Shown: positions 6,872-61,209 of the stretch, piece by piece
Layout: the number at the start of each line of letters is the position of its first letter
Numbering within the stretch: the first letter of the stretch is position 1
From: a virus
Taxonomy: Duplodnaviria > Heunggongvirae > Uroviricota > Caudoviricetes
DNA length: 64,000 bases
IMG/VR virus record: IMGVR_UViG_3300011337_000358
Reading direction: 5' to 3' (one strand)
Notes under the pieces: model-generated
The model's database searches: none
What the model saw: only the letters and a program-made list of their open reading frames with translations
What the model was told of the DNA's origin: nothing
Made by a program: the position numbers and the translations under genes

Positions 6872-7141
6872 ATGATAAATAGTATACAAAGGACATTTAT
6901 TATGAAAGAACATATCTACACATCATCCAAAGGAGAGAGTTTTTTATCATGGGATGATTGGGCACTCCAAACACTAAACGAAAGTGATTTGAGTGTTTAT
7001 CTTAGCCCCCAAGTAGAAGGTTCAACATTATCTGCTGATAAATTGGCTTTATATGCACGTTGGGTAGACGAAGAACAAATATTAACACACGTTGTTAAAG
7101 AAGATGATGTTATAATACAACAATCAAATGCACTCAAGTAA
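6872..7141 (+). CDS. Hypothetical small protein
   Basis: ORF; an alternative start 'MKEHIY' at 6902 is possible. Confidence 0.4.
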   Translation: MINSIQRTFIMKEHIYTSSKGESFLSWDDWALQTLNESDLSVYLSPQVEGSTLSADKLALYARWVDEEQILTHVVKEDDVIIQQSNALK

Positions 7142-7700
7142 TTTTATTACAGAATCTGCCGTAGATGAGTTAGCAAAAAAACTACCCTCATTGACTAAAC
7201 ACGACTATGATACCATTGATACATTAATGAGAAGTATTGCCAGTAGACATAGCATGAGTGGTAATGCATTACATGATTTGTTTGTAAAAAAATATAAAAG
7301 AACACCCGATAACTGGATTAAACATAAATTAGACGAAGGTGATGATTCAGATTTGCAACAAGAAGTTGATAAATTCTGCGATTGGGCATGTAAACGATTG
7401 CATATAAAATCTAAACCTGAAATTGAACTCAGTATGGATACTGAAGAAGCACAAAATAATCATCATACAGGTGGTCATCAAATGGGCGCTGATAGTATTT
7501 GGGTATATGTAAATAATCGTAACCTAGTTGATATACTACGCACAGTATTTCATGAATTGGTTCATGTGCGCCAAGGTGAATTAGATATGATTAAGCCGGG
7601 TGATAGTTACCCAGGTAGCCCAATTGAAGCAATGGCAGATATGCTTGCGGGCAAATACATCAAAATTTATGGTGAACAGAACCATCATATCTTTCAATAA
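7128..7700 (+). CDS. Hypothetical HExxH zinc-metallopeptidase-like protein
   Basis: 'VFHELVHVRQGE' HExxH motif. Confidence 0.45.
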   Translation: MHSSNFITESAVDELAKKLPSLTKHDYDTIDTLMRSIASRHSMSGNALHDLFVKKYKRTPDNWIKHKLDEGDDSDLQQEVDKFCDWACKRLHIKSKPEIELSMDTEEAQNNHHTGGHQMGADSIWVYVNNRNLVDILRTVFHELVHVRQGELDMIKPGDSYPGSPIEAMADMLAGKYIKIYGEQNHHIFQ

Positions 7701-25876: not shown

Positions 25877-26101
25877 ATGCCATTAGATCAAGTCCAATCA
25901 TATGATTACTTTTATGACAAATTGATAGGTACTGAACTTAAGTTTACTTGGCTACCCCAAACTTGTGACATATCAGGTAAGCGTATTTGGTTAAAGTATG
26001 GGTATAGGATGACTAGGATGATTACTGGACCGGGCACACCTGTCTTTGAGTATAGATGGCACGATAAGAATACCCATATTATATGGAAACTAAAAAGGTA
26101 A
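25877..26101 (+). CDS. Hypothetical small protein
   Basis: ORF. Confidence 0.4.
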   Translation: MPLDQVQSYDYFYDKLIGTELKFTWLPQTCDISGKRIWLKYGYRMTRMITGPGTPVFEYRWHDKNTHIIWKLKR

Positions 26102-26105
26102 ATAT

Positions 26106-26285
26106 ATGTATGAATTAAGATATCTTGTCCGAAACGGTTGGGATGGACCTGAACAAGTGTTACAATATAGAACTCAACATGAAGTAACAGACTATAGTGG
26201 CACAGATCCTAAAACAGGTGGATTCATTAGAAAAATAGAATGGACTGAATGGAAGTATGTCCCCACCGTAGATGAAACAAAATGA
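26106..26285 (+). CDS. Hypothetical small protein (59 aa)
   Basis: ORF coupled to neighbours. Confidence 0.3.
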   Translation: MYELRYLVRNGWDGPEQVLQYRTQHEVTDYSGTDPKTGGFIRKIEWTEWKYVPTVDETK

Positions 26286-27631
26286 AATTATACGATAAAC
26301 GAATTGCTTTTTTGATTAGTGACCAACATTTTATACCGCATGGTGGTATAGGTAGTTTTGCTAAAGGCTTTACTGAGATGTGTGGTCGTATCGGGTGGAA
26401 GGTTGATATTATATTAGACAAAGCACCTACTAATTTATTCAGTGATTTAATTATTAGTCTAGGTGCTAACATTGTTTACCCTGATGAACCACTACGATAC
26501 AGTGACCATACTGCTACGTTTGCATTTAGCGATACTATCAACTTTGAAAAGATTATCAACTTCCGTAAAGCAATATTAAAAGCATTTGAAACAAATGTAT
26601 ACGACATGATTGTGTGTAATACACAAGAGGCAATGACTGCTAGTTATGCCATGACGGTTAACAAGTATATACCTGTTGTATTCTATACTCATTTGCACAG
26701 TATGATTTTTCGTGAAAGTCAAGGTAGTGATGTATTTTTAGACAGCTATCACAATTTCTATAACAAACATATGGAGTTTACTGATATCATTATAGGCACA
26801 CAAAGTCAAAAGAACATTGACGAACTAACTAAGTTTGGTGCAACTAACTGTCAGTTATTGCGTATGCCAATGAGTGAACGTGGTCTATTAGAACGATACA
26901 ATGGATCTAAGAAGGGTGTACTATTCATTGGACGATGGGAAGAAGGTAAGAACCCTGAAGCATATATTCGTGTAATGAAAGAATGTAAATTACCATGTAA
27001 GGTAATGACAAATAGTAACGGTGCAAAAAAGTTTGAGAAGGCATTCAGTGACGCAGGTATTACTGATTATGAAATCAAAGCCGGTATTACTGGACAAGAG
27101 AAAGTAGATTTTGTTCGTGGTGCTAATGTATTCTTTATGCCCAGCCTTCGTGAAAACTATCCATTTGCATTTTTAGAATGTCTTGGTCATATGCCTTGTG
27201 TTGTGCTTGATAATCAAGATTGGTCAGACAACTTTGAGCGAGAATACTATCATCAAGTTTCAATTGGTTCAGCAGCCGACATGATTAAAACATTGTATGG
27301 CACAAATCAATTATCTTCAGTATTAGACTATGTGAAACAATTAGATGATGAGGTAGCTCAAGGTTGGATTACATTCTTAGATAATTTTGCAGGCAAGCGT
27401 AGCAACACAAATGCCGCAAAGATTAATACATATGATACAGTTAAGTATAGTGATTATATCAAGGATTTAAATCGTACACATTTAGCACGTGAGGACTTTG
27501 AAAGCGTACTCGCAAACAAATATAAGTTTTTAAATGTCTGCTACACAGATAGTGACACTTACCTAAGCAAAGACCCAACATATAAACCAGTCGAGGAAGA
27601 AACAGCATTAAGTCTGTTTGAAGGATTATGA
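26282..27631 (+). CDS. GT-B glycosyltransferase, family 4-like
   Basis: N-terminal 'ISDQHFIPHGGIGSF' (GT4 N-domain) and C-terminal 'FMPSLRENYPFAFLECLGHMPCVV' (E-x7-E motif). Confidence 0.7.
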   Translation: MKLYDKRIAFLISDQHFIPHGGIGSFAKGFTEMCGRIGWKVDIILDKAPTNLFSDLIISLGANIVYPDEPLRYSDHTATFAFSDTINFEKIINFRKAILKAFETNVYDMIVCNTQEAMTASYAMTVNKYIPVVFYTHLHSMIFRESQGSDVFLDSYHNFYNKHMEFTDIIIGTQSQKNIDELTKFGATNCQLLRMPMSERGLLERYNGSKKGVLFIGRWEEGKNPEAYIRVMKECKLPCKVMTNSNGAKKFEKAFSDAGITDYEIKAGITGQEKVDFVRGANVFFMPSLRENYPFAFLECLGHMPCVVLDNQDWSDNFEREYYHQVSIGSAADMIKTLYGTNQLSSVLDYVKQLDDEVAQGWITFLDNFAGKRSNTNAAKINTYDTVKYSDYIKDLNRTHLAREDFESVLANKYKFLNVCYTDSDTYLSKDPTYKPVEEETALSLFEGL

Positions 27632-28458
27632 AAAAAGTTTTAATTACAGGTAACTCAGGTTACATTGGCAGTCATCTAAGTAAGATGTTAATGGATACAA
27701 TGAAATATGAAGTTCATGGATTAGATATCCGTGACCCGCAATATGCATTGAATAGATTTTATCGTCAAGATATCAATAGACAATTTTCATTAGATGAAGA
27801 ATTTGATGCAGTCATTCACTTAGCCGCATTAGTTAATGTAGGTGAAAGTGAACAGATACCCATTCAATATTATATCACTAACTTAAATGGCACAATGAAT
27901 GTCATTAACAAAGTAAAGACTAAAAACTTTATATTTGCAAGTACGGGTGCCGCAGTTGGTTGCGAAAGTGCTTATGGTATCAGTAAACGTGCCGCAGAAG
28001 ATGTAGTCAAAGAATACTGCACACATCACAATAAAAAAGATTATACTATCTTTAGATTTTATAATGTGATTGGTACTACCGTTGTTCCACCTACAAATCC
28101 AGATGGATTAATGTATAACTTAATGAAAGCACGTGAAACAGGTGAGTTTACTATCTTCGGTAATGACTATGACGTTAGTGATGACGGTACATGTGTGCGT
28201 GATTATGTACATGTGAATGAAATTTGTGACTCATTAGCACAGGCTATCGAAAAGCCTAGTAACCAAATTGAATCATTGGGTCACGGAGTGGGATGGACAG
28301 TTAAAGAGATTGTCGATGAGTTTCAAAAAGTCAATCACGTTGACTTTGAAGTAAAATACGGCCCAAGAAGAAAGGGTGATCTTGCTAGTTCTGTACTAGA
28401 AGATGTTTCACCCTATATGCGTAATCTATATACTATGGATGAGTTGCTTAAGGTTTAA
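27628..28458 (+). CDS. NAD-dependent epimerase/dehydratase (extended SDR; UDP-sugar 4-epimerase-like)
   Basis: Rossmann 'ITGNSGYIGSHL' and catalytic 'YGISK' (YxxxK). Confidence 0.75.
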   Translation: MKKVLITGNSGYIGSHLSKMLMDTMKYEVHGLDIRDPQYALNRFYRQDINRQFSLDEEFDAVIHLAALVNVGESEQIPIQYYITNLNGTMNVINKVKTKNFIFASTGAAVGCESAYGISKRAAEDVVKEYCTHHNKKDYTIFRFYNVIGTTVVPPTNPDGLMYNLMKARETGEFTIFGNDYDVSDDGTCVRDYVHVNEICDSLAQAIEKPSNQIESLGHGVGWTVKEIVDEFQKVNHVDFEVKYGPRRKGDLASSVLEDVSPYMRNLYTMDELLKV

Positions 28459-28459
28459 T

Positions 28460-28933
28460 TTATAGACCAATCTTGGGTGGATACATTGGGCCAGACTTTA
28501 TTCGTTCACCACCGTCAAAGTAACTAATTTCTACTGGTAATTCTTTCCAGCCTAATCTATGTGCAGCCATGATACGATGATTACCTTCGTTTACCCAGGC
28601 ACTGCCATCATAGGCCACATTGATAAAAGGTTTGTATTCTTCACTAGAGTGTGAATGTAATGGTAGCTTGCCGGTGTCCTTCATTATTTTCATAATTGCA
28701 ATAAGATCACCTTGACGCACATTTTGTTGTTCGTTTCGCATACCGGGTATTTGTCTTAGTAAGTTAACAGGAATTTCAACTTTTCTGACAGTAGCAGTTG
28801 TCTTTCCCATGTAGGGCAAACCATTACGATCAGGACTTTTTTGCTTGGCATACGCAATAGCATCGTTTAGCCATTCCTCATTAGGCACATCAACACTAAG
28901 TGTTCCTTCAGTTATAAATTCTTTTGCTCTCAC
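28460..28933 (-). CDS. ParB/sulfiredoxin-superfamily protein with T4-type capsid-targeting N-terminus
   Basis: 'GNHRIMAAHRLGWKELP' matches ParB 'GERRWRAAKLAGL'. N-terminus 'MRAKEFITE|G' resembles the T4 capsid-targeting sequence / gp21 cleavage site. Confidence 0.55.
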   Translation of the reverse strand: MRAKEFITEGTLSVDVPNEEWLNDAIAYAKQKSPDRNGLPYMGKTTATVRKVEIPVNLLRQIPGMRNEQQNVRQGDLIAIMKIMKDTGKLPLHSHSSEEYKPFINVAYDGSAWVNEGNHRIMAAHRLGWKELPVEISYFDGGERIKSGPMYPPKIGL

Positions 28934-29604
28934 ATTGATCCTTTAGAATTAACAAACCAGGGGTCAACTATAACTAATTCTCCATTACTACGTTGCATGA
29001 CATTTTCGGTGTGCAAGTCCCAACCAAATTTGTTTATTCTACCCGATTGATATAATAGTTTCATTACACTAAACAAGGTAGCATACGTCTTATAAAAAGT
29101 AACACCTTGCTGTGTCATTGCATTATCTATAAGTTTAGCCATTTTAGATGATATTGGGCTAGAGAAGAATTTCCAAGTTTCAGGATCAGTTAGTGAAGGT
29201 AAGATTTGTTGCCAAGTCTCACCTGTAACAGCATAGTCACTTAATATCCAGACCATTGCTTCTTCAACACTGTTCTTTTTAATAGGCTGAAGATGTTCCA
29301 TGTCAATTTGTATGTAATCCTCACCGGCAATATCGATTGTATTCATTTCATTAAATATAGGTAAACAAGAAATCTCAGGATGATTTTCACAGAATTCGTA
29401 AAACTTTTTAAATACTTTTTCAGCGTGACCACTAGGATCATCTGGCATTAATATTTTAATCACATGACTAGTATCTTTAGCCCATACTCTTGCATCAGCT
29501 CCGCTACCAATATGTTTGTAACCTAGTGATTTTAAATGCGCGGCAATTTCTTTGAAGGCTGGTCCTGTTGCAGCCTCATCTACTGCAAATTCATTGGCTC
29601 TCAT
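28930..29604 (-). CDS. Protein-kinase-like fold protein with capsid-targeting N-terminus (candidate injected kinase)
   Basis: Gly-rich loop 'IGSGADARVW'. Catalytic-loop-like 'WDLHTENVM' (D-L-H-x-x-N). 'LVIVDPWF' is DFG-like. N-terminus 'MRANEFAVDE|A'. Confidence 0.55.
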   Translation of the reverse strand: MRANEFAVDEAATGPAFKEIAAHLKSLGYKHIGSGADARVWAKDTSHVIKILMPDDPSGHAEKVFKKFYEFCENHPEISCLPIFNEMNTIDIAGEDYIQIDMEHLQPIKKNSVEEAMVWILSDYAVTGETWQQILPSLTDPETWKFFSSPISSKMAKLIDNAMTQQGVTFYKTYATLFSVMKLLYQSGRINKFGWDLHTENVMQRSNGELVIVDPWFVNSKGSM

Positions 29605-29783
29605 TTCTTGCGACCCCTAAACCCTACTGGCATCTGCAAATCATTAACGGGAAACATTGCTTTGAACCACTCATCAGTACCAGGCTTAGCAGTAATTTTG
29701 CTACGGTCTATAGGCACAGAAGATGTAGGTTTTCCTCTATGGTCGGTAACTCCTGCAAGTCTTTTAAGTTGATCTATGTTCAT
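29601..29783 (-). CDS. Hypothetical small protein
   Basis: ORF coupled within the minus-strand operon. Confidence 0.4.
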   Translation of the reverse strand: MNIDQLKRLAGVTDHRGKPTSSVPIDRSKITAKPGTDEWFKAMFPVNDLQMPVGFRGRKK

Positions 29784-30334
29784 AGACTCTTACCCCAGCG
29801 TGTGTTAATCACATTCCAGTTGATAATCTTCCACTGTTCAGCCAAATACTTTTTCTTATCAGCACCGTAGTCTAATATCCACGCATGTTCCCACCAATCA
29901 ACTAATAACAATATATCATTGCGTACTTCATGGTTCTTAATTGTTTTAATTTTACCATCAGTTGCTAAATATACCCACCCACTACCTTGTATCTTCATTG
30001 CTTCAGTTTCAAACTGTGACTTCATATTATCGTATGAGCCAAAATGTTTGTTAATAAAGCCCATCATGGGGCCGTTTGGATTGTTTTTATTTCTTACTTC
30101 ACGGAACTGAGGGAACAATGTATTATGTAAGAATGCACCTGCATAGTTAAATTCTTTATCTCCGATATCTTTGTTATATCTTTCAGCATAGCCATGTGCT
30201 AACTTGCCATAGTGTAAGTCTATAGTGTCTACCGACAAAACCGGACTTAGTTCTTTTGGCTCAAAATTAAGCTGAATGATTTCTATATCTTGAGGTTTTG
30301 ACTTATCCTCAAGTAACTGAATTAAATCACGCAT
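29780..30334 (-). CDS. Fe/Mn superoxide dismutase-like protein
   Basis: C-terminal 'VDWWEHAWILDYGADKKKYLAEQWKIINW' matches SOD 'DVWEHAYYL…Y……INW' (Asp/His metal ligands). 'HYGKLAHGYAERYNK' and 'AFLHNTLF' resemble the SOD N-terminal His blocks. Length is 184 aa. Confidence 0.6.
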   Translation of the reverse strand: MRDLIQLLEDKSKPQDIEIIQLNFEPKELSPVLSVDTIDLHYGKLAHGYAERYNKDIGDKEFNYAGAFLHNTLFPQFREVRNKNNPNGPMMGFINKHFGSYDNMKSQFETEAMKIQGSGWVYLATDGKIKTIKNHEVRNDILLLVDWWEHAWILDYGADKKKYLAEQWKIINWNVINTRWGKSL

Positions 30335-32115
30335 CAGTGTTTCAATAATAATGTAGAAATGATGTTAGGATCGTTAGCACTGATATCACCTTCACCGGGT
30401 GCAACGATAACATTGTACTTCATACCGGCTGGTATTGATTTACGTTTAGCCATGTACTGATTATAGTCTAATATAGAGTTGGCACTTAATCCATACTCTT
30501 TTGCAAGACGATTCTTTAGTTCAGGTAACTTATCAGGTTGTACTTGCCATTGGCCTTCTGACCCCTTAACTAAGTTTTTCTTTTCGTCCTTAACTAATAA
30601 ATCTTGGAACAAGTCATCTGGAACAATACGACTATTCTTAGTTTTATCTAAGTTAGCATCACTTGCCTTAACTTGTTTCTCTTGTGATGTATGAGCACCT
30701 TCACTCCAATTGATAATAAAGTTAGGTGGCTTCTGACCTAATGCGGCACCAGCCATCTTTGTGTAAGCATAGAACTTAGTATCAGGATGCTTTGCAGCCA
30801 TCTTTAATGCCAAGTCTAAATATTCTGGGCTGAAGAAGTCACCAGCATCATGCCAACGAATAGTAGTTTGCCAACCTTTAGGGAATTTCTTATCACCCTT
30901 TTGACCAGCTTGTTCTTCTTTGCTAATCTCACTACTTAATTGATTGAAGAACCCGTCTGGATCATTCAATAGATATGTTAATATTCTTCCGTCACTTTGC
31001 CATGCGTTCTTAAACTGAATTTTTCCGCCCTTCATAGCAAAACAATCTATTTTACATGAGCCTGCGCCCGGGCATGTATTAACAATGATTAGTTTATTTG
31101 TTTGTTCGTCTAGTGCAATACCAGTCAATGCCGCAAAGCCAACGTTGAAGAATTGTTCAAACTCTCCGTTACTATGCTTCATCTTTTCGTTTTGCTTTAG
31201 TAATGATTTAGGGCGTTGTGACAATGTTTTCTTAACTGCATCCTCATCATATGTTGCACCATCTGGACCTAAGTATTCAACTACACTACTACGGTGGATA
31301 TAAGGCATTTTGTATCTATCTGTTTTTGTTTTACCAGATACATATTTTTCATTACCCTTTTTATCTACCTTAACATTACCTGCTTTGTCTGTATCAGGAG
31401 TACCAACAATACGTTTCATGTAATCTTGGAACTCATCGCCACCAAACTCACGGCTACTTGCTGGCAGTTTAGTTGCTTCTTCTAAGCCAGATAGTTTGCG
31501 AATTCTATCTAAGCCTTCCGCCACACCTTCATTTGCACTTTGACTAGCCAATTTATAAATATACGCAGTACCGTTGGGTAATAGATACGTAGTATAATTT
31601 CCTATACCCCTCTCACCCATTTGAGCCTGTTGAATTTTTATCATTTTTGCGCCGCGCGGCGTTGGGCCATCTTTAGGTACCAGCATACCTTTATATTCTT
31701 TGCCTCCATGGTGCACAACTATACCAGTGTCGCTTCGTTCTACTTTTTCTGCTGTATCAACATTTTGATTTGGCATCTGACCACCAGATTTTTCTGCACT
31801 GGCTTGAAATCCTTGTTGAGCCATTTGTTGTGCGGCACTAGGTGACATTTGGCCATCAGCACCAAGACTAACTCTTGCGTGTGCAGAGCCAGCTGACCCT
31901 AACGCACCCATTGCACCTAATGCCATTGCACCTGTTGCGGCTGCTTTTTTCCAATTAATTTCGTCAAGTTGCTCTTCCGTCATACCTTCTTCTGATTCTT
32001 CATCGGGCATATCACCCGCTTTAGTAACGAATTGCTGAGGTGTCATAATTTGGATGCCACTAGGTGCTCCAGGCATTTTTGGCTCTACGCCTTCGAATAG
32101 TTCTTTGAAATTCAT
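30334..32115 (-). CDS. Large internal-protein-like protein (593 aa) with capsid-targeting N-terminus; Alt-like by architecture only
   Basis: N-terminus 'MNFKELFE|GV' (compare T4 Alt 'MELITELFDE'). Gly/Ala-rich linker. Shares 'EEQLDEIN' with ORF 2-955. Confidence 0.5.
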   Translation of the reverse strand: MNFKELFEGVEPKMPGAPSGIQIMTPQQFVTKAGDMPDEESEEGMTEEQLDEINWKKAAATGAMALGAMGALGSAGSAHARVSLGADGQMSPSAAQQMAQQGFQASAEKSGGQMPNQNVDTAEKVERSDTGIVVHHGGKEYKGMLVPKDGPTPRGAKMIKIQQAQMGERGIGNYTTYLLPNGTAYIYKLASQSANEGVAEGLDRIRKLSGLEEATKLPASSREFGGDEFQDYMKRIVGTPDTDKAGNVKVDKKGNEKYVSGKTKTDRYKMPYIHRSSVVEYLGPDGATYDEDAVKKTLSQRPKSLLKQNEKMKHSNGEFEQFFNVGFAALTGIALDEQTNKLIIVNTCPGAGSCKIDCFAMKGGKIQFKNAWQSDGRILTYLLNDPDGFFNQLSSEISKEEQAGQKGDKKFPKGWQTTIRWHDAGDFFSPEYLDLALKMAAKHPDTKFYAYTKMAGAALGQKPPNFIINWSEGAHTSQEKQVKASDANLDKTKNSRIVPDDLFQDLLVKDEKKNLVKGSEGQWQVQPDKLPELKNRLAKEYGLSANSILDYNQYMAKRKSIPAGMKYNVIVAPGEGDISANDPNIISTLLLKH

Positions 32116-32804
32116 TTCTTGTGGTTCCTAATAAATTGTTCTGCTAGCATTACTAATTCTTGCATTTGCTCAATAGATTCACAATGCCATCTACGTAAAC
32201 TCTTATTAATATTGCTGTTTGGATCACGTGCTGTTTTAGCACTTGTACGATGTTTCTTCATACCGCGCATTCTAGCGCAAAAACTAGCACGGCGCTTTGC
32301 GTCCTTGCTACCCTTTTTAATCTTGCTTGGCTTTTTAGTAACTGCTGTTTGAATCTTGCTACCAGGATGACTACGGCGATAACTACTTACAGATTTTTTA
32401 CTCATCCCACCTACACGTTTGTTATTGTGCTTTGACCAATTCTCGCCTTCCGCCACACCTTGACTTAATAATTTTTTAACAGATATTGGACCTGATTGAT
32501 TTTCTGCACCGGTTAAAAATTCATTTCCCCATGGGGTTATCCAACCATCAAATTCAATATCATTGCCTTGAACCATAATATCATTATTACCATCAAGGTT
32601 TTGATATCCATTCAACTCTTTGTACCATTTTCTTAATGATTGTAACTTGTATGGACCTTTGTAGCCTTGTTTTTTCAAAATAGAAATAATTTCCGGAGTA
32701 AATCCAACTGGTTGACCCTCAGATACTTTCTCTTTTTTGCTAATAGCAATAGCGGCTTGTTGTGCTGGATTTGCGGCTTCTGTTAAAATTTCTGTTATTC
32801 TCAT
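32112..32804 (-). CDS. Basic internal-protein-like protein with capsid-targeting N-terminus
   Basis: N-terminus 'MRITEILTE|A'. Very basic C-terminal half. First gene of the minus-strand operon. Upstream 'GATAAATA' (rc of 32860-32867) is T4 late-promoter-like. Confidence 0.5.
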   Translation of the reverse strand: MRITEILTEAANPAQQAAIAISKKEKVSEGQPVGFTPEIISILKKQGYKGPYKLQSLRKWYKELNGYQNLDGNNDIMVQGNDIEFDGWITPWGNEFLTGAENQSGPISVKKLLSQGVAEGENWSKHNNKRVGGMSKKSVSSYRRSHPGSKIQTAVTKKPSKIKKGSKDAKRRASFCARMRGMKKHRTSAKTARDPNSNINKSLRRWHCESIEQMQELVMLAEQFIRNHKK

Positions 32805-32822
32805 AATGGTATCCGTAAATAG

Positions 32823-32851
32823 TTGACTTTATTGCGTAGTTGTGCTACACT
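32823..32851 (+). promoter_or_regulatory. Promoter TTGACT-17-TACACT for uvdE. The divergent region also carries rc 'GATAAATA' (32860-32867) for the minus-strand late operon.
   Basis: Hexamers; T4 late promoter consensus is TATAAATA. Confidence 0.5.
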
Positions 32852-32880
32852 GTATATATTATTTATCACTTTGGGCTTTT

Positions 32881-33909
32881 ATGTACACAAATCAATCAGT
32901 CAAACGTATCGGCTTTGCTTGCAAATGGGCAGAAATCAACAAGAAAGGTGAAATTGCTTCAGCCGAAGGTCTTAACACTGGCGGCACAACTCATGCTTGG
33001 GCAAAGCGTAATAGTCGTAATGTAGTAGAAGAAAAGATTATGGATGTTGCAAAACGCAATATTATGAATACACATGCACTAGTTAAACGTGTCGCTACAC
33101 TAGAACCACAATTACGTATGTTGCGTCTTACTAGCGATATGCTGAGTTTTTACACACTAGATGAATATAAAGGCTTTTGGCAAAGTAGTGATGTACAAAA
33201 CAGCTTGGCTCGATGGTTTGCCCCGATCGGGGAAACAGCACGTGCCAATGATGTTCGTCTTAGTTTTCACCCTGACCAGTTTGTAGTTTTAGCAAGCGAC
33301 CGTGAAGAAGTAGTAAATAAGAGTATTGAAGAATTTGAATATCATTGTGACATGGTTCGTTGGATGGGCTATGGCAAAGAGTTTCAAGACTTCAAAGTAA
33401 ATGTACATATCTCGGGACGTAAAGGCCCACAAGGCATCAGGGATGTGTACAACAGATTGTCGCCAGAAGCGAGAAACACACTAACACTAGAGAATGAGGA
33501 ATACACACATGGACTTACTGACTGCTTATCATTATCTGACCTCGTACCTACGGTCATGGACATACATCACAATTGGATTCGTGAGGGAGAATATATTTCC
33601 CCCAATGATGACAACGTTAAAAAGGTTATTGATAGTTGGCGCGGTATTAGGCCTACTTTACATTACTCCGTCAGCCGTGAAGATGTACTTGTCGGGCATT
33701 CCGGATCACAGTTACCCGATCATGGTGCGTTGATTGAATCTGGATACAGTAAGCAAAAACTTCGGGCACATAGTGATTACTATTGGAACGAAGCTGTGAA
33801 CGATTGGGCATTGACATTCATTGATAAATTTGATATGATGTGTGAATCGAAGGCAAAGAATCTTGCCAGCTTTAAATTATTAGAGAGATATAAATGTTTG
33901 ACAAAATAA
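32881..33909 (+). CDS. uvsE: UV DNA damage endonuclease (UvdE/UvsE) homolog
   Basis: The ordered blocks match B. subtilis UvsE: 'RIGFACKW' / 'RFGFVSNA', 'VRLSFHPDQFVVLAS' / 'LRTSFHPNQFTLFTS', 'VNVHISG' / 'INIHIGG', 'TLTLENEE' / 'RMTLENDD', 'DIHHNW' / 'DFHHF', 'RAHSDYV' / 'RSHADYV'. Promoter TTGACT-17-TACACT at 32823-32851. Confidence 0.8.
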   Translation: MYTNQSVKRIGFACKWAEINKKGEIASAEGLNTGGTTHAWAKRNSRNVVEEKIMDVAKRNIMNTHALVKRVATLEPQLRMLRLTSDMLSFYTLDEYKGFWQSSDVQNSLARWFAPIGETARANDVRLSFHPDQFVVLASDREEVVNKSIEEFEYHCDMVRWMGYGKEFQDFKVNVHISGRKGPQGIRDVYNRLSPEARNTLTLENEEYTHGLTDCLSLSDLVPTVMDIHHNWIREGEYISPNDDNVKKVIDSWRGIRPTLHYSVSREDVLVGHSGSQLPDHGALIESGYSKQKLRAHSDYYWNEAVNDWALTFIDKFDMMCESKAKNLASFKLLERYKCLTK

Positions 33910-34325
33910 AAAACTTATTTAAAAAGCCAGAACCTGTAAAGCCTGTACAGCAAAAGAAACCACGACAGCCTAAAAAGAAGAAGGAAGATACACCTCTTTC
34001 AGAAAAAGAAAAAGCTACAATGGAAGGCATGCCCTATGTTAATATTCTTAAAATGGAACTAGATCCATACGATATTAATACAGGTGCATTTGAATTAGAT
34101 TGGAACGATAAGTTTGTATTGAACTTAATCAAATCTGGATTTAAGATTCGTGAGGATGATACTGATACAATGATTGTTGAACGTTGGTTTCAAACAGTAT
34201 GCCGCAATGTCGCACTAGAACTCTATGAACAGCAACAAGCTGATCCAGAGAATCGTACAATGGCTAGTGAAATGCGTGTGGTCCGTGCTAAAGATTTGGG
34301 CGATGGCCGTACTGAGGTAAGCTAA
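33894..34325 (+). CDS. Hypothetical protein with basic Lys/Pro-rich N-terminus
   Basis: ORF. Confidence 0.5.
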   Translation: MFDKIKNLFKKPEPVKPVQQKKPRQPKKKKEDTPLSEKEKATMEGMPYVNILKMELDPYDINTGAFELDWNDKFVLNLIKSGFKIREDDTDTMIVERWFQTVCRNVALELYEQQQADPENRTMASEMRVVRAKDLGDGRTEVS

Positions 34326-48425: not shown

Positions 48426-49763
48426 ATGTCAGCATCGTGGATTCGTAAACTAAATGAATCAGACAGCCGCCTTCACAAGGAAGACGTAATCAAACAAGCA
48501 TTAGAGGCAAGTGTCCTTGGTAGCACAAATGCTATTAATTTCCTCTCATTCACTAAAGCCTGTTATAACCCGTATGTAACATTTGGTGTTCGTCAAATAC
48601 CAGAACTGGTAGGGATCACTAACGCAGAAAATCCCTGGGAAGAATTTAATGAGTTGATGTTACAACTTAGTCAACGTAGATTGACTGGTCATGCCGCACG
48701 TGATGCTATTCAAAGTATGGCTGAACGTTTTGATAGTGACGAATGGAATACATTCTTAGCACCTGTATTGCGTAGAGACTTACGTGCAGGCATTAGCGAC
48801 AAAACAATCAATAAAATTTGTAAGAAAACAGATTATGAAATTCCAATCTTTGGTTGTCAATTAGCGACCAACAGTGAAGGTCGTCCTGAGATGAAAGGCA
48901 TCAAACGTCTTGAACCTAAGTTAGACGGTGTTCGCATGTTGATGATGGTCATCCCAAGCGATTTTGGTGATGTGACTATTATCTGTTTTAGTCGCAATGG
49001 CAAACAGTTTGATAACTTCATTGACATTGAAAAACAAGTGCGTGATAATTGGGTCAAGATGGTTCGCAAGGCCGCAACGTCAAACTTGAGTATGGGATTT
49101 GTACTTGATGGTGAAGTGATTGGTAATAGTTTCCAAGAACTAATGCGACAAGCCCGCCGCAAGACTGATGTACGAGCAGAAGATAGTGTCTATAATGTGT
49201 TTGACATTTTACCTCTAGATGCTTTCCGTGAAGGTCATTGGAATGCTCAACTTGAAAAGCGCATCAAAATCTTAGATGACATGCGCCCGATCATTGATAC
49301 TATGCCTAATGTCGAATTGCTTCCGCACATCATGGTTGACCTTGATACGGCCGCAGGTAAGGATCAACTTGAACGCTATGCCAAAGATAATGTGAACGCA
49401 GGGTTTGAGGGCATTATGATTAAAGAATTAGAAGCACCATATATCTGTAAGCGTAGTACAGATTGGATGAAATGGAAACCTACGATTACAGTAGACTTGG
49501 AGGTAGTAGGTGTTGAAGAAGGAACTGGTAGAAATTTGGGAAGACTTGGAGCACTTGTTTGTCATGGAGTTGACGACGGGAAAGAAATTACAGTCAATGT
49601 GGGTAGTGGCTTTAGTGATACTGATAGAGATGACTATTGGACTAACCGTAATTTGGTCATTGGTCGTACTGCTGAAGTCCTGTGTGATGTGATTACACAG
49701 AACCAAGATGGAACATACAGTTTACGTTTTCCTCGATTTGTTAGATTTAGGGATGACAAATGA
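48426..49763 (+). CDS. ATP-dependent DNA ligase, T4 gp30-like
   Basis: Motif I 'LEPKLDGVRMLM' (KxDG). 'LTGHAARDAI' and 'VLRRDLRAGISDKT' parallel T4 ligase 'LTGNAAIEEL' and 'VMMRDLECGASVS'. Promoter TTGACG-17-TATAAT at 48368-48396. Confidence 0.85.
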   Translation: MSASWIRKLNESDSRLHKEDVIKQALEASVLGSTNAINFLSFTKACYNPYVTFGVRQIPELVGITNAENPWEEFNELMLQLSQRRLTGHAARDAIQSMAERFDSDEWNTFLAPVLRRDLRAGISDKTINKICKKTDYEIPIFGCQLATNSEGRPEMKGIKRLEPKLDGVRMLMMVIPSDFGDVTIICFSRNGKQFDNFIDIEKQVRDNWVKMVRKAATSNLSMGFVLDGEVIGNSFQELMRQARRKTDVRAEDSVYNVFDILPLDAFREGHWNAQLEKRIKILDDMRPIIDTMPNVELLPHIMVDLDTAAGKDQLERYAKDNVNAGFEGIMIKELEAPYICKRSTDWMKWKPTITVDLEVVGVEEGTGRNLGRLGALVCHGVDDGKEITVNVGSGFSDTDRDDYWTNRNLVIGRTAEVLCDVITQNQDGTYSLRFPRFVRFRDDK

Positions 49764-55789: not shown

Positions 55790-56995
55790 ATGACCTCTGA
55801 ATCTAAACTAAACCATTGTTCCTTTTGTGGCAATCACAAAGATAAAGTTACTAAACTTATCGTAAGCGAAGATGTTGCTATTTGTAGTGACTGTATTGAA
55901 TTATGCAACCAATTAGTTATTGATGAACTTGTAACCAGTGAATCGGCTAATGTAAAAGAAAACACCATTAATGACCCTCATTTAATTAAAGAGTACCTGG
56001 ATGAGCATGTAATTGGACAAGATTCTGCTAAAACAGTACTGAGTGTGGCTATTGCTAATCATTATAAACGCATTACCTATCCACCAAAAGACTTAGAAAT
56101 TTCTAAAGGTAATGTCTTAATTATTGGGCCTACTGGATCAGGTAAAACACTATTAGCTAAAACAGTAGCAAAATACTTAAATGTACCTTTCATTGTTGCT
56201 GATGCTACTAGTTTAACTGAAGCAGGGTATGTGGGTGATGATGTTGAATCAATGATTAGTATGCTTGTTAATGCCGCAGGTGGAGATCCTAAACTAGCAG
56301 AACGTGGTATTGTGTTTGTTGATGAAATTGATAAGATTGCACGTAAGAGTGAGGGTACTAGTATTACCCGTGACGTATCAGGTGAGGGTGTTCAACAGGC
56401 GTTATTGAAATTAGTTGAAGGCACCGTGTGTCGTATTCCAGCTAGTGGCGGACGCAAACATCCCGGTGGTGATATGCTAGAAATTAATACAAAAAATATA
56501 TTGTTCATTGCAGGTGGGGCATTTGTTGGATTAAAAGAAATTATTTCTAATCGTAAAAACGGTACCAGTATTGGATTTGGGGCAAATATTAAAGAAAATA
56601 AAAAAGAAGGTGAACTAAGCCAAGTAACTCCTGACGATTTGACTAAGTTTGGTATGATTCCTGAGTTTATCGGCCGCTTTACTACTACAGTTAGCATTGG
56701 TGAATTGGGGAAAGATGAGTTAAAACAAATATTAACTTCCGTTAAAAACAATTACATCAAGCAATATCAATATCTATTAAGTATTGATGGTATTGAATTG
56801 AACTTTGAAGATGGTGCTTTGAATCAAATTGTAGATAATTGCTTGAAATTAAAGACCGGAGCACGTGGATTACATACTGAAATTGAACGTGTATTGATGC
56901 CACATATGTTTAATGTCAACAAGTATAAGGAAAATAACGTAAAAGTGATAAATATAAGTCAGGACGCAGTTATAGAACCAAAAATTATGTTATGA
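55790..56995 (+). CDS. clpX: ClpX ATP-dependent protease unfoldase subunit
   Basis: N-terminal C4 zinc-binding domain 'CSFCGN…CSDCIELC'. Walker A '[11 protein letters not shown]'. Length 401 aa. Confidence 0.9.
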
Positions 56996-57213
56996 GTATT
57001 AAAGGAAGACGAGTTATTGTACAAGACGGGAATTTTGAAAAAGCATTACGCAAATTCAAAAAGAAGATATCCGACCTGGATTTATTACAAGAAGTTCGTG
57101 ACCGTCAACAATATGTTAAACCTACTGTTAAACGCAAACTAGCAAAAAGCCAAGCTAAACGTAGATGGCAAAAATATCTACGTGACCAAAGTCTACCCAA
57201 GAAACTTTTTTAA
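56992..57213 (+). CDS. rpsU: Ribosomal protein bS21 (RpsU) homolog
   Basis: '[41 protein letters not shown]' matches E. coli S21 '[41 protein letters not shown]'. Length 73 aa. Confidence 0.85.
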
Positions 57214-57261
57214 CCTAAATATTATAATTTATTGCGTATTAGTAGTATAATAAATACATAC

Positions 57262-57313
57262 GTAGATGCCGATAATCGGGTCTACATATAGTCATCTTGC
57301 TTAATAAAGGAGA
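57262..57313 (+). promoter_or_regulatory. Candidate ROSE-like RNA thermometer in the Hsp20 5'UTR
   Basis: Nested hairpin 'GTAGATGCCGATAATCGGGTCTAC' followed by 'UUGCU' (57297-57301) positioned to pair with SD 'AGGAG' (57308-57312), with the G·G mismatch typical of ROSE elements. Confidence 0.4.
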
Positions 57314-57319
57314 AAACAA

Positions 57320-57772
57320 ATGACAAAAACTTTAACCCTTCGTTCCCTCGACATTCCGTCGCTTCATAAATTTGGTATCGGTTTCGATTCAATGTTTGAT
57401 GAATTGCACAGAATTCATTCTCAACAATCCAACACAAACTATCCCCCATATAACATAGTCCAAATTAATGAGGACGAGTATATGATTAGTGTAGCTGTAG
57501 CTGGATTTGGTCTTGATAATCTTTCAATAACAAAAGACAAAAACTTTTTGATTATTGAAGGGAAGGAATATCAATCTGATAGCGAAGAAATCATACCAAA
57601 CTATCTACACAAAGGTATTAGCAACAGAGACTTCCGTCGTGAATTCAAACTTGCAGACCACGTAGAGATAGTGGATGCAAATTTAGAATTGGGTATCCTC
57701 AACGTTCATTTAAAACGTGAAGTTCCTGAAGAACAAAAGCCCAAGTCTATTGCAATTACTTATACTAAGTGA
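57320..57772 (+). CDS. Small heat-shock protein Hsp20/alpha-crystallin family (IbpA-like)
   Basis: 'FRREFKLADHVEIVDANLELGILNVHLKRE' is the alpha-crystallin domain C-terminal block. Confidence 0.85.
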   Translation: MTKTLTLRSLDIPSLHKFGIGFDSMFDELHRIHSQQSNTNYPPYNIVQINEDEYMISVAVAGFGLDNLSITKDKNFLIIEGKEYQSDSEEIIPNYLHKGISNRDFRREFKLADHVEIVDANLELGILNVHLKREVPEEQKPKSIAITYTK

Positions 57773-57795
57773 TATAATAGAATTTCAATAAATAA

Positions 57796-57817
57796 GTGTG
57801 CGGGGTAACTCGCACAC
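57796..57817 (+). promoter_or_regulatory. Stem-loop (GTGTGCG-N8-CGCACAC) in the clpS leader, after a TGATATAAT extended -10
   Basis: 7-bp perfect inverted repeat. Confidence 0.35.
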
Positions 57818-57832
57818 AACTTAAATAAAATT

Positions 57833-58836: not shown

Positions 58837-58839
58837 CAG

Positions 58840-59094: not shown

Positions 59095-59175
59095 TTCTAT
59101 CTCCTAAACATATATTTACTCGGGTTTGAACCATAAACATTTTTTCCTTAAGTATATGAAGTTTCCAAAAGTTAA

Positions 59176-59685: not shown

Positions 59686-59689
59686 CATT

Positions 59690-59697
59690 GATAAATA
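59690..59697 (+). promoter_or_regulatory. T4 late-promoter-like motif 'GATAAATA' ~20 nt upstream of the capsid-targeted protein gene
   Basis: 7/8 match to TATAAATA. Same motif in front of the minus-strand capsid-targeted operon. Confidence 0.4.
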
Positions 59698-59715
59698 CTT
59701 CATAGGTATATTATT

Positions 59716-61140
59716 ATGAGAGCACTAGAATTTTTAACTGAAGCCCCACTTACACCAGGAAACTTATTTGACCCTCGTCACTTAAACTGGAGACCACAAA
59801 ACTTTCTTAAAAAGTTAGAAGCAGGGACACCGTTCGTAGATAAATCCGGTAATAAGTATTACCCGGAAGATGGAGAATTTGAAAGAATTACTCCTATCGT
59901 TACTCAAATATTACAACAGTTAGAAAAACAACCTAACGCCCCTCTACCAAGTATCAGCATCAATATGAAAGATGTTGGTCCTGTTTCATTGAGCAAATTA
60001 GAAAAAGCAGATTTGCAAACAGCAGGTGGACAGTTTACTAGTGACGTTAATGTACAACCATTAGGTATTGGTATTGCGGCTGATCCTATCAATAAACCCG
60101 GCACAAAGCCTGCTGATAAAATAACAATGACAACTGATGAAGAAATTCAGGCTGCATTGGACAAACATCAAGAAATTAAAGCTGGTCAATTGTATGAGGT
60201 TATCATGTCTAATAAGACACTTGACCAAGCAGGAGAGTTGGGTAAAGCAATCAAGCAAGCCGCAACTGAAATGAATAATAATCAAGTACCTATTATTAAA
60301 CAGTATGCGGAATCAGTACAAAAGAAAATCGCAATTGATGCAGGTGAATATTTAGGTGTATTGGCAATGGTCAAAGATGTTGCTGACTTTCCCAAAAAAG
60401 CCGCATTCTTAAACTTTCTACGTGCAAATGATTTTGAAAATTTATCAATTATTTTTCCCGGAGAACAGAACTCTCCATTAGGTGACAGTTACGGTGTACA
60501 AAATGCAGAAACTGGTCATAATATTGTTATCAGTAGCAAAGGTGGTAAGGGTAGTACGGCATCTGGCGCCGCCCCTAGCCTAGGAGGTTTAAAGACTTCT
60601 GTTGACAAACGTGCATCGAAGATTAGAAAAGGTAACGGACTCGATTTTATTAATCATATTATTCAAGTTAGTCCAACTTCAGCGCAAGGCTTTGCAGGTA
60701 TTAATTGGATTGCAAATAATTATCCAGAATCAGTGCCAGACAAATATAAAAATTTAGTTCCATTCTACAGCGAAGATGTGAAACAAATATTGAAAAACAT
60801 TCGCACAAAGGGCGCAGAACCTATTCCAGAAAAGTTCTTATCATTAATCAGTGCTCCTAGTATTCAAGCAAGTAAAGGTACTGATGGTGGTAAGTTAGTA
60901 TATGTTGTAACTAAAGATTTGGTGAGTGCCATCAATGCAGGTATCATTAAAAACTTTAGAACTACTGTGTTAGAACTATTAGATGAGAACTTTGTTCAAA
61001 TCTTCTCACGCATTATTGGTGGCAAACTTGTTACCAAAGTATTGTGGCCAGGTAAAGTTGATGGCAATGTATCGTTGCATACTAAGATTTCTCCGGGAGA
61101 TCCAGGTGGTGCAGGATTAAGTTTCAAGGTTACCGATTAA
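59716..61140 (+). CDS. Internal-protein-like protein (474 aa) with capsid-targeting N-terminus
   Basis: N-terminus 'MRALEFLTE|A', paralogous to the minus-strand block N-termini. Upstream 'GATAAATA' at 59690-59697 is late-promoter-like. Confidence 0.55.
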   Translation: MRALEFLTEAPLTPGNLFDPRHLNWRPQNFLKKLEAGTPFVDKSGNKYYPEDGEFERITPIVTQILQQLEKQPNAPLPSISINMKDVGPVSLSKLEKADLQTAGGQFTSDVNVQPLGIGIAADPINKPGTKPADKITMTTDEEIQAALDKHQEIKAGQLYEVIMSNKTLDQAGELGKAIKQAATEMNNNQVPIIKQYAESVQKKIAIDAGEYLGVLAMVKDVADFPKKAAFLNFLRANDFENLSIIFPGEQNSPLGDSYGVQNAETGHNIVISSKGGKGSTASGAAPSLGGLKTSVDKRASKIRKGNGLDFINHIIQVSPTSAQGFAGINWIANNYPESVPDKYKNLVPFYSEDVKQILKNIRTKGAEPIPEKFLSLISAPSIQASKGTDGGKLVYVVTKDLVSAINAGIIKNFRTTVLELLDENFVQIFSRIIGGKLVTKVLWPGKVDGNVSLHTKISPGDPGGAGLSFKVTD

Positions 61141-61152
61141 CACTAAAATCAA

Positions 61153-61181: not shown

Positions 61182-61209
61182 AGTGGAAACATTTATATAA
61201 AGGAAGTTT

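Follow-up and report, generated by a model that had tools for sequence, protein, structure and literature searches.

We propose that a gene on the minus strand of a giant uncultivated phage encodes a minimal kinase with a leader of the T4 capsid-targeting (CTS) type, and that this kinase could be loaded into the phage head, clipped there, ejected with the DNA and act on host proteins, a complete reading that we are about as ready to accept as to doubt. The initial annotation of the window, that is, the whole 64,000-nucleotide stretch analysed here, had described a putative packaged protein kinase from three motifs and a capsid-targeting N-terminus, and did not give the coding strand. The gene and the features that carry the argument are as follows.

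28930..29604, minus strand: kinase gene of 224 aa, an ATG-to-stop open reading frame with the leader and a minimal protein-kinase-like core
29575..29604, minus strand: leader MRANEFAVDE, a putative propeptide for capsid targeting that would be cut after V-D-E10
29482..29511, minus strand: glycine-rich ATP-binding loop IGSGADARVW, residues 32-41 (beta1-beta2), from conservation and strands
29455..29457, minus strand: codon of K50, the lysine of beta3 'VIKI', equivalent of the VAIK ATP-phosphate-binding Lys
28996..29022, minus strand: catalytic loop WDLHTENVM, residues 195-203, D196 being the predicted catalytic base and N201 the predicted Mg ligand
28954..28971, minus strand: IVDPWF, residues 212-217, holding the metal-binding Asp that corresponds to that of DFG

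The kinase assignment of the initial annotation, for which a fold prediction by AlphaFold had been suggested, was upheld, as a kinase fold is predicted and all three motifs that it had named (IGSGADARVW, WDLHTENVM and IVDPWF) are conserved among homologues. The AF2 model of the 224-aa protein (pLDDT 83.1, pTM 0.80) contains a PKL-fold core, with a five-stranded N-lobe and helix C followed by the catalytic loop and the metal-binding loop, and its top Foldseek matches in the PDB are PknB, VRK2, APH(2'') and MTR kinase (prob ~1), and the best BFVD matches include annotated T7-like phage protein kinases over the full length (~220 columns, TMq 0.5-0.6). The best PHROG match is phrog_15752 'protein kinase' (E=3.9e-11), which carries a gp0.7-type annotation. 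Across 262 aligned members of the family, with denominators varying by position, the glycine-rich loop retains G33 in 243/248, G35 in 248/248 and V40 in 225/248, with modelled strands at residues 30-34 and 38-42; K50, within a strand at 47-52, is conserved in 245/249. The catalytic loop keeps D196 in 251/254, H198 in 237/254 and N201 in all 254, and the IVDPWF motif keeps D214 in 252/254 and P215 in 254/254.

The predicted protein, a minimal phosphotransferase that is expected to be catalytically competent, consists of a full N-lobe, a helical linker region, the catalytic loop and the metal-binding Asp, and both the sequence and the AF2 model lack an activation segment ending in APE and the C-lobe helices F-I. 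It terminates 10 residues past D214, and 238 of 255 members likewise stop no more than 15 aa beyond this DFG-like residue; therefore, it is not a canonical Hanks kinase. The alpha-C Glu, the usual partner of the beta3 Lys, is E62 in this protein and is found in only 126/248 relatives.

The family is large, with relatives falling into 1,538 clusters at 50% identity, and its annotation is almost nil. Neither tblastn nor a near-identity DNA search of 50,697 deposited phages matched the kinase, and the bacterial and archaeal genomes searched held no relatives, so they offer no host clue and no prophage copies. NCBIfam and PADLOC searches gave nothing useful, a PDB search with the single sequence gave a chance match only, and a vaccinia capping-enzyme small subunit, matched in a PDB profile search (E=0.02) over a helical region only, was treated as noise. 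The WDLHTENVM stretch matches faintly the defence kinase PD-T4-6.

Among described families the kinase most invites comparison with Kinase-PolyVal (PF18762), which is found in the 'polyvalent proteins' of phages and plasmids (Iyer et al. 2017). Against this family it reaches 18.1 bits (E=0.0029), under the 27-bit gathering cut-off; 47 of 59 kinase homologues match PF18762 at E<=0.01 (best 1.2e-5), and 7/120 among the homologues listed bear the precomputed PF18762 label. Of the residues that mark Kinase-PolyVal, the Gln of the final N-lobe strand may have its counterpart in Q99 (strand 95-103, 197/254), and where that family has Glu ahead of strand 2 the window kinase has D37, at a position with Asp in 228/248 and Glu in a further 11. 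Kinase-PolyVal likewise belongs to the Ser/Thr/Tyr kinase superfamily, having lost the whole C-terminal subdomain and kept the active-site residues, occurs in phages stand-alone or in big multidomain proteins alongside NTase or peptidoglycan-hydrolase domains, and is expected to enter the host together with the DNA (PMC5512222). Large relatives of the present kinase add NTase, NT5C and GH19 domains, as polyvalent injected proteins do (PMC5512222). However, the His-to-Asp insert of Kinase-PolyVal was not recognised in the window kinase, delivery here is predicted to use a short T4-type leader on a small protein rather than fusion into a giant polyprotein, and the carriers are metagenomic jumbo phages with a T4-type polymerase rather than the described (pro)phages of Verrucomicrobia and Bacteroidetes.

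T7 gp0.7 and its Autographiviridae counterparts resemble the window protein as small phage kinases, T7-type kinases being among its closest viral structure matches, and in their presumed early phosphorylation of host proteins. Hhalign with the T7 protein covered only 57 N-lobe columns (prob 74%, E=2.7e-5) and found no full-length homology. Unlike the window kinase, gp0.7 has 359 aa, is expressed early and carries no CTS-type leader; it is not known to be a virion protein. The initial annotation had set an injected kinase against the expressed gp0.7, an apt contrast, given that T7-type kinases are close in structure and related over the N-lobe only in sequence. HopBF1, a type III secretion effector that targets eukaryotic HSP90, represents minimal effector kinases of bacterial pathogens that differ in having no detectable sequence relationship to the window kinase.

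The kinase lies within a co-oriented operon, and its leader recurs on neighbouring genes and elsewhere in the window.

32112..32804, minus strand: DUF6321 gene, 230 aa, first in the operon; leader MRITEILTE|A; Pfam PF19846, E=4.9e-11
30334..32115, minus strand: GP88-family gene, 593 aa; Pfam PF17338, E=1.1e-23, domain at residues 306-480
29780..30334, minus strand: Fe/Mn superoxide dismutase (SOD) gene; Pfam Sod_Fe_C, E=4.3e-24
29601..29783, minus strand: 60-aa ORF without leader, overlapping by 4 bases on both sides
28460..28933, minus strand: ParB-like gene, 157 aa, downstream of the kinase; leader MRAKEFITE|G; contains ..NEGNHRIMAA..
59716..61140, plus strand: gene of 474 aa with leader MRALEFLTE|A, between an SprT-like gene and ClpP
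7128..7700, plus strand: gene of 190 aa with the degenerate leader MHSSNFITE|S, from a 14-member family

Beside the kinase, the ParB-like and DUF6321 proteins are the tagged members of the operon, the latter with a leader profile score of 19.3, and the starts of the GP88-family protein and the SOD are only loosely leader-like. The GP88-family protein has a long N-terminal extension beginning MNFKELFE|G, which the strict leader profile rates poorly (-5.4) and which resembles the start of a head-module ORF of phage K64-1, MLFKDIFES. The SOD has about 17 extra N-terminal residues (MRDLIQLLED..), its Sod_Fe_N match beginning only at residue 18, and its NCBIfam SOD matches fall under cut-off. The 60-aa ORF is kept together with the cassette in the related loci L001-L004. 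The GTG start of the ParB-like gene overlaps the kinase stop (GTGA); its product has a weak PHROG ParB-like match (E=7.9e-4) and one weak tblastn match among the 50,697 deposited phages. The pair recurs on a 344-kb contig, and the two are fused in a single protein, P0140, with 63% and 42% identity to these two proteins of the window. Because relatives fuse both, the ParB-like protein is probably co-delivered with, and functionally linked to, the kinase. Outside the operon, the 474-aa gene has the highest leader profile score of the window (23.1), and its product matched nothing in Pfam, PHROG or NCBIfam, nor by tblastn in the deposited phages; orthologues of the 190-aa gene begin with a full leader, MRYTEFIIES (e.g. 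L011 4339-4911).

Sequence comparisons show that approximately the first ten residues of the kinase form a separate, modular and clustered leader, conserved at the peptide level. In the AF2 model, residues 1-9 are disordered (pLDDT <50). At least five genes of the window carry the leader, compared with 0.45 expected from shuffles, and M-R-x-x-E-F-(I/L)-x-E starts at least 26 unrelated protein families in kinase neighbourhoods. DNA-pattern matches to the leader in viral contigs fall at ORF starts in 143 of 146 cases, spanning 32 families, and the conserved residues are encoded by varied synonymous codons. Where other domains, 60-900 aa in length, come ahead of the kinase, the leader still occupies the very N-terminus, and the density of leader genes is raised about 9-fold within 1 kb of kinases, all 82 being co-oriented with them. 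Across the family the consensus reads E-F-(I/L)-x-E with A, S or G next, and the kinase gene has V-D-E|A; its leader, with A-V-D-E in place of I-T-E, is a weaker example, scoring 13.1 against 19-23 for two other genes, and is third among 553 window candidates. A literature search for the leader strings returned irrelevant matches only.

In form, the leader is statistically indistinguishable from the N-termini of T4 prohead-core proteins that are clipped by gp21. Applied to T4, the leader profile places gp24 (11.1), ipII/ipIII (10.2) and a gp67 site (8.7) at the head of 304 candidates, the next scoring about 1, and the N-terminus of ipII/ipIII, MKTYQEFIAE, is similar to the kinase leader. In the T4 leader, F7 and residue 4 are the two residues implicated in targeting, I8 and E10 control processing, and gp21 cleaves after L/I-x-E (PMC9026906); it removes exactly the first 10 residues of gp24 (PMC9958956). 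T4 F7, I8 and E10 correspond to the most conserved positions of the present leader, F6, I/L7 and E9, and residue 4 has no conserved counterpart. Beside gp21-type proteases, gp68-like prohead-core proteins open with MRLNEF, MRAKDL or MRARDF; a small ORF upstream of these proteases was considered as gp67-like and rejected, as it aligns with gp68 over the C-terminal half of the latter. Leader proteins of a second phage type adjoin terminase and sheath genes, and tblastn in the 50,697 deposited phages gave no match for a small leader-bearing protein of another phage type. Together with the modularity, conservation and clustering of the leader, this likeness to T4 bears out the capsid-targeting N-terminus of the initial annotation at the level of sequence.

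The T4 system, in which IPI, IPII, IPIII and Alt are processed by gp21, thus resembles the present one in placing a short N-terminal peptide on otherwise unrelated proteins, in an E-F-(I/L)-x-E core that ends in the L/I-x-E cleavage motif, in grouping the genes in variable loci away from the head-gene block, and in that Alt modifies host proteins, as the kinase cargo would. The present leader differs in being one residue shorter and starting with M-R-A rather than M-K-T-Y, and the putative cargo is far wider (kinase, ParB-like and DUF6321 proteins, perhaps those of GP88 type and SOD, besides dozens of uncharacterised families). In addition, no gp21 gene was seen in the 64-kb window.

Head, scaffold and gp21-type protease genes were all absent from the window, and the T4 head proteins gp17-gp24 found no match in it or in 72 kinase loci with flanks of up to 10 kb; therefore, the kinase lies outside the head module. 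A contig adjoining the right edge adds 3.4 kb with no head genes, and the left-edge protein has no match on record. None of the best 120 homologues of the K64-1 protease was placed on a kinase-bearing contig, and the contig names of 80 protease loci do not overlap with those of kinase-bearing contigs. By DNA polymerase, the nearest relatives are jumbo phages, with Phosso and Atu_ph07 closest and the RaK2/K64-1 group next; gp20 and gp21 orthologues are reported for the Atu_ph07 group (PMC7824862), and K64-1 has a gp21-type protease. By analogy with these relatives, we infer that the present phage may possess a gp21/S77-type protease and a scaffold core. The relatives also suggest a Gram-negative host; samples in which this phage occurs include ERR1824253, SRR15557811, JGI 3300009164 and 3300011339. 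The T4 late promoter motif TATAAATA is rarer in the window than expected (2 copies against 9.1) and shows no preference for positions ahead of genes; a near match to TATAAATA stands upstream of the operon, and generic sigma-70 and terminator scans of the window were at background level.

Based on these findings, the kinase is probably injected with the DNA, and the route could be as follows. The kinase would be made together with the leader-tagged proteins of a co-oriented, translationally coupled operon, and its leader, by analogy with T4 IPII/IPIII, gp24 and gp68, would dock it in the prohead scaffolding core. A gp21-type prohead serine protease would then cut past (I/L/V)-x-E, here V-D-E10|A11, so that the head would contain a mature kinase of about 214 aa beginning AATGPAFK, which would exit with the DNA and phosphorylate host proteins ahead of any phage gene expression. 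Such delivery would parallel that of the ADP-ribosyltransferase Alt, which T4 packages, whereas T7 gp0.7 acts only once expressed.

Whether the leader denotes the head at all is the first point at which this proposal may fail. The kinase could be real and unpackaged, and the leader a degron or adaptor tag for phage ClpXP/ClpS, which would time the clearance of a group of early effectors, or a signal for localisation or assembly that has nothing to do with the head; an N-terminal tag could mean proteolysis instead, since ClpX, ClpS and ClpP are all encoded in the window, with the leader gene at 59716-61140 among them, and no head genes lie near the kinases in the 72 loci. However, the T4 proteins picked out by the leader profile go into the prohead core and are processed by gp21, the gp68-like core proteins of head modules begin alike, the leader ends in a gp21-type (I/L)-x-E, and the second phage type places leader proteins beside terminase and sheath genes; the distance from head genes has its precedent in T4, whose internal-protein genes also sit outside the head cluster, next to denV. 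We regard an unpackaged kinase as unlikely, while giving it real weight. If the protein does enter the head, it might act there or on phage components (scaffold, internal proteins or cargo) during assembly, as the leader evidence concerns head entry and not ejection, and fusion to a ParB-like domain of DNA-binding or nuclease type could mean a DNA-associated role. Against this, ATP should be scarce within a sealed head, the known CTS cargo (IPI, Alt) works in the host, and the multidomain relatives resemble effector arrays, so that action within the particle appears quite improbable.

The substrate and the activity itself are likewise to be weighed. A kinase fold acting on a small molecule, nucleic acid or lipid, as in aminoglycoside, choline and methylthioribose kinases, would accord with the D-L-H-x-x-N loop, which is like that of APH/ChoK, with APH(2'') and MTR kinase among the best Foldseek PDB matches, with the lack of both an activation segment and a peptide-binding C-lobe, and with weak PIP5K matches from four kinase homologues; the target might then be a nucleotide signal, a sugar or an antibiotic-like compound. 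We consider this rather unlikely. An inactive pseudokinase serving as a structural internal head protein could be imagined from the poorly conserved alpha-C Glu and the heavy truncation of the domain, whereas the glycine-rich loop, Lys50, Asp196, Asn201 and Asp214 are conserved at >=98% in 262 sequences otherwise down to about 40% identical; such conservation amid divergence is the signature of selection on catalysis, and makes loss of activity very improbable indeed.

Phage kinases, and protein cargo of T4-type heads, are already known. Our literature searches turned up no kinase that reaches the host as head cargo; the one related item was what had been predicted computationally for polyvalent proteins (PMC5512222). 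If the proposed delivery of the kinase is true, host phosphorylation could start at DNA entry, which bears on how phages pre-empt defence systems acting within minutes. We further suggest, a little short of even confidence, that M-R-x-x-E-F-(I/L)-x-E is a portable, sequence-readable head-loading tag used by a large group of uncultivated phages related to T4. As the leader occurs on dozens of unrelated, mostly unannotated viral-metagenome families, it would provide a cheap computational handle on non-DNA injected cargo; the injected protein repertoires of such phages would be readable directly from genomes, and the leader is a possible tag to load foreign proteins into non-model phages. This phage would then represent a disaggregated polyvalent effector, in which the kinase, the ParB-like and DUF6321 proteins, and possibly the GP88-type protein and SOD, are each self-tagged, and together would constitute a pre-made enzymatic toolkit acting on the host before transcription.

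The open reading frame on the minus strand at 28930-29604, initially annotated as a putative packaged protein kinase, is a real gene running from an ATG at 29604 to a TGA at 28930 and encoding 224 aa, and the three motifs quoted for it are all present (IGSGADARVW, residues 32-41; WDLHTENVM, 195-203; IVDPWF, 212-217). It occupies fifth place in a compact block of six minus-strand genes (28460-32804), outside which the genes are otherwise on the plus strand, and the sign of the GC skew reverses across the block. Neighbours in the block share 1-4 bases, the kinase stop and the ParB-like GTG start being interlocked as GTGA, so the block is read as one translationally coupled operon.

Sequence profiles identify the product as a kinase, although the support from curated families is weak: residues 4-216 match PHROG phrog_15752 'protein kinase' (E=3.9e-11), and the Pfam Kinase-PolyVal model scores 18.1 bits, under the 27-bit cut-off. 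A word-indexed search yielded 197 homologues, and an exhaustive profile search 1,538 clusters at 50% identity (E<=1e-3), 109 of them at E<=1e-30; no family member was found in the 185,579 bacterial and archaeal genomes searched. The AlphaFold2 model, built from a 59-sequence alignment, was confident (pLDDT 83.1, pTM 0.80), and predicts beta1-beta3, helix C, beta4-beta5, a helical region, the catalytic loop and two short strands, with disorder limited to residues 1-9 and 218-224. The Foldseek hits in the PDB, at probabilities close to 1, were PknB, VRK2, APH(2'') and MTR kinase. Among predicted viral structures, the best match was an uncharacterised protein of an uncultured phage (E=6e-12). Also strong were matches to T7-like phage proteins annotated as 'protein kinases', over the whole length (TMq 0.5-0.6), to further unannotated phage proteins and to small uncharacterised RaK2 and CBB proteins. 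A kinase fold is the common outcome of three fold searches with the predicted structure, as the initial annotation had anticipated. The match of the helical middle region (residues 62-186) to the poxvirus mRNA-capping-enzyme small subunit D12 (profile A1 against the PDB, E=0.02) was marginal and judged noise, though it recurs for three orthopoxvirus sequences.

The protein ends 10 residues past the DFG-like Asp, as 238 of 255 relatives end within 15 residues of it, and it lacks the activation segment and helices F-I, which excludes a canonical Hanks-type kinase. Polyvalent-protein kinases have lost the C-terminal subdomain with active-site residues intact (Iyer et al., PMC5512222), and the present kinase shares both features, together with the conserved Gln of the last N-lobe strand (Q99, 197/254); 47 of 59 homologues match the Pfam Kinase-PolyVal model at E<=0.01. 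The Glu before strand 2 is Asp here, and the His-to-Asp insert is not recognisable. Therefore, on sequence features, the family is taken to be related to Kinase-PolyVal or to form an outlying branch of it, its membership being unproven. Detectable homology with T7 gp0.7 is confined to the N-lobe (hhalign probability 74%).

The N-terminal M-R-x-x-E-F-(I/L)-x-E peptide, here called the leader, and its looser variants open the following genes of the window (the arrow marks the predicted cleavage point):

7128-7700, 190-aa gene, MHSSNFITE↓S
28460-28933, minus strand, ParB-like gene, downstream neighbour of the kinase, MRAKEFITE↓G
28930-29604, minus strand, kinase, MRANEFAVDE↓AA
30334-32115, minus strand, GP88-type protein, MNFKELFE↓G
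32112-32804, minus strand, DUF6321 gene, first of the operon, MRITEILTE↓A
59716-61140, 474-aa gene, MRALEFLTE↓A

The leader regular expression hits five real gene starts in the window versus 0.45 expected from shuffles. The kinase leader, with A-V-D-E, is weaker than those of its neighbours (profile score 13.1 versus 19.3 and 23.1). In 72 IMG/VR kinase loci, 136 ORFs open with the leader and, once it is removed, fall into 26 unrelated families; on viral contigs, 143 of 146 among the matches listed for a degenerate leader DNA pattern open ORFs (at least 60 aa, or ended by the contig edge), from at least 32 families. Kinase homologues with 60 to more than 900 extra residues carry them between leader and core, the core staying C-terminal, and the leader lies outside the predicted fold, in the disordered residues 1-9. 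The codons of its conserved residues differ synonymously between genes (Arg AGA/CGT/CGA, Phe TTT/TTC, Ile ATC/ATT/ATA); this points to selection on the peptide and argues against an mRNA element. Taken together, the N-terminal position, unrelated carriers, gene-start DNA, synonymous codons and disorder establish the leader as an independent module. Leader genes are concentrated near kinases (0.26 per kb within 1 kb versus 0.028 per kb at 6-10 kb), and 82 of 82 lie on the strand of the kinase.

In T4, propeptides of 10-19 residues direct otherwise unrelated internal proteins into the prohead core, with residues 4 and 7 serving targeting and 8 and 10 processing, and gp21 cuts after L/I-x-E (PMC9026906; PMC3012670). 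In the T4 record, ipII and ipIII begin MKTYQEFIAE↓A and ipI begins MKTFKEF...ITE↓A. With a one-residue offset, F7, I8 and E10 of this capsid-targeting sequence correspond to F6, I/L7 and E9, among the most conserved leader residues, whereas the targeting residue Y4 has no conserved equivalent. In a first, independent test, a position-specific profile trained on 238 metagenomic leaders was scanned over all 304 ATG-initiated candidates in 40 kb of T4, and the top four were gp24 (11.1; MAKINELLRE↓S), ipII and ipIII (10.2 each) and a gp67-internal site (8.7), the fifth-best scoring about 1. It is known that gp21 removes exactly the first 10 residues of gp24 and degrades gp67, and that internal proteins lose short N-terminal peptides (PMC9958956). 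In a second test, on 80 viral-contig loci with a gp21-type protease, a small ORF about 1 kb upstream begins MRLNEFYNPE, MRAKDLLVEF or MRARDFLTEG and aligns with T4 gp68, a prohead-core protein, over the C-terminal half of gp68 (...MPLNEFIV...TRTKDRK). Based on the T4 scan and these ORF starts, the kinase leader is, as judged by sequence, of the same type as the N-termini of proteins that enter a T4-type prohead core and are cut by its protease, the prohead-core status of the comparison proteins being known or assigned from gene position. The proposed capsid-targeting N-terminus is thereby supported at the sequence level, by likeness to ipII/ipIII, gp24, gp67 and gp68-like starts. Between its portal and scaffold genes, the Klebsiella phage K64-1 has ORFs that begin MLFKDIFE↓S, MANLKLLQE↓A and MTKLEKLLKE↓S, the first a small ORF (MLFKDIFES; head-module locus L201, 292-522) very like the GP88-type start MNFKELFEG.

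The source of the window is an uncultivated phage of the jumbo type, whose T4-type DNA polymerase shares 44-49% identity with the polymerases of Sinorhizobium phage Phosso, Agrobacterium phage Atu_ph07 and the Klebsiella RaK2/K64-1 phages. Megablast found no deposited phage DNA similar to 26000-34000, and no cultured relative carrying the kinase or leader proteins was found among deposited phages. The kinase cassette recurs across several metagenome assemblies that are independent of one another. Neither the window nor the flanks (up to 10 kb) of any kinase contain a head, scaffold or protease gene, and none of the 80 protease loci placed a gp21-type protease on a kinase-bearing contig. By analogy with the nearest polymerase relatives we infer that the present phage has such a protease: the Atu_ph07 group is reported with gp20 and gp21 orthologues (PMC7824862), and K64-1 demonstrably encodes a gp21-type protease. 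That the operon lies among replication and repair genes is no argument against packaging, since T4 ipII and ipIII are themselves neighbours of denV, a long way from the head cluster. A UvdE-type UV-damage endonuclease (Pfam label; 32842-33909) divergently adjoins the operon; denV is likewise a UV-repair gene, a likeness that is probably coincidence. The T4 late-promoter core TATAAATA is rarer than expected in the whole window (2 copies versus 9.1), with at least 2 copies in 100 of 100 shuffles, and late promoters of this phage, if used, differ from those of T4. The 64-kb window has no tRNA genes; other genes include:

1398-2675, radical-SAM protein
26282-28458, paired 449-aa unknown protein and NAD-dependent sugar epimerase/dehydratase, directly abutting the operon
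48426-49763, ATP-dependent DNA ligase

The ParB-like neighbour has a weak PHROG match and a ..NEGNHRIMAA.. motif. In the relative P0140 (395 aa), a single leader is followed by a ParB-like domain 63% identical to this neighbour and a kinase 42% identical to ours, and the junction NEVDVDEAE↓SGT, which keeps a leader remnant, may be an internal site at which a protease separates the two halves; such fusions, with a single leader and a leader-like ..VDVDEAE↓SGT.. junction, recur in loci L008, L009, L034, L047 and L048, and a 344-kb metagenomic phage contig carries a ParB-like and kinase pair about 2 kb apart. Very large kinase relatives match a Pol-beta-type nucleotidyltransferase (borderline, E=0.001), NT5C, GH19 lysozyme-like and DUF6934 domains. 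ParB, NTase, kinase and peptidoglycan hydrolase make up the usual domain repertoire of polyvalent proteins, whose injection alongside DNA is predicted (PMC5512222), and by analogy the operon looks like a polyvalent toolkit split into small, separately tagged proteins. The operon's Fe/Mn SOD (29780-30334) is extended at its N-terminus by about 17 residues (MRDLIQLLEDKSKPQDI) ending L-L-E, its Pfam N-domain match beginning only at residue 18, and may be packaged. The GP88-family domain (PF17338; 30334-32115) stands behind a low-complexity Ala/Gly/Gln-rich extension of about 300 residues. In a second, apparently smaller phage type, adjacent paired proteins of about 125-130 aa (L102, 8667-9436; also L085, L086, L087, L115, L130, L184 and L199) both begin MRA(K/R)EFITE and end ..KPFKGYKK, and a T4-type large terminase lies within a few kb of them; this unannotated family has 78 members, and the 60-aa operon ORF of the window ends similarly (..PVGFRGRKK).

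We propose that an active minimal kinase would be loaded into the prohead via the leader, be clipped after E10 and then be ejected with the DNA, so that it would phosphorylate host proteins as soon as infection begins. Across 262 collected family members the catalytic residues are near-invariant, namely the glycine loop (G33 243/248, G35 248/248), beta3 lysine (K50 245/249), catalytic loop (D196 251/254, N201 254/254) and DFG equivalent (D214 252/254, P215 254/254), so the motif conservation expected of a kinase was found; the helix-C glutamate, kept in just half of the family, is the sole blemish on the catalytic picture. From sequence and model, the product is very probably an active kinase-fold phosphotransferase, and there is only a very slight chance of a pseudokinase. 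That an enzyme of this fold, whose PDB matches run from PknB to MTR kinase, acts on a small molecule is distinctly unlikely, and that it works inside the particle is quite improbable.

The leader is somewhat probably a head-targeting, protease-cleaved propeptide, to judge from its prohead-core likeness. It is unlikely that it has another meaning, e.g. as a tag recognised by ClpXP/ClpS of the phage itself; all three proteins are encoded in a proteostasis set at 55790-62465, with the leader-tagged 474-aa protein between the SprT-like gene and ClpP:

55790-56995, ClpX
56992-57213, ribosomal protein S21
57320-57772, Hsp20
57833-58138, ClpS
59176-59685, SprT-like metalloprotease
61210-61797, ClpP

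To our knowledge it is unusual for one phage to encode ClpX, ClpS and ClpP together, and the complete trio could be relevant to what the leader means. The whole packaging chain, including ejection and host protein targets, is proposed tentatively, at slightly short of an even chance.

The kinase fold, phage kinases, polyvalent-protein kinases and the T4 targeting mechanism are already known, and the novelty is their combination, a large unannotated C-lobe-less kinase family with a capsid-targeting-type leader in uncultivated T4-related jumbo phages. We found no literature on the leader or on an experimentally shown head-packaged phage kinase. Besides the kinase, the leader tags dozens of other families, and the proposal of a packaged kinase is directly testable.
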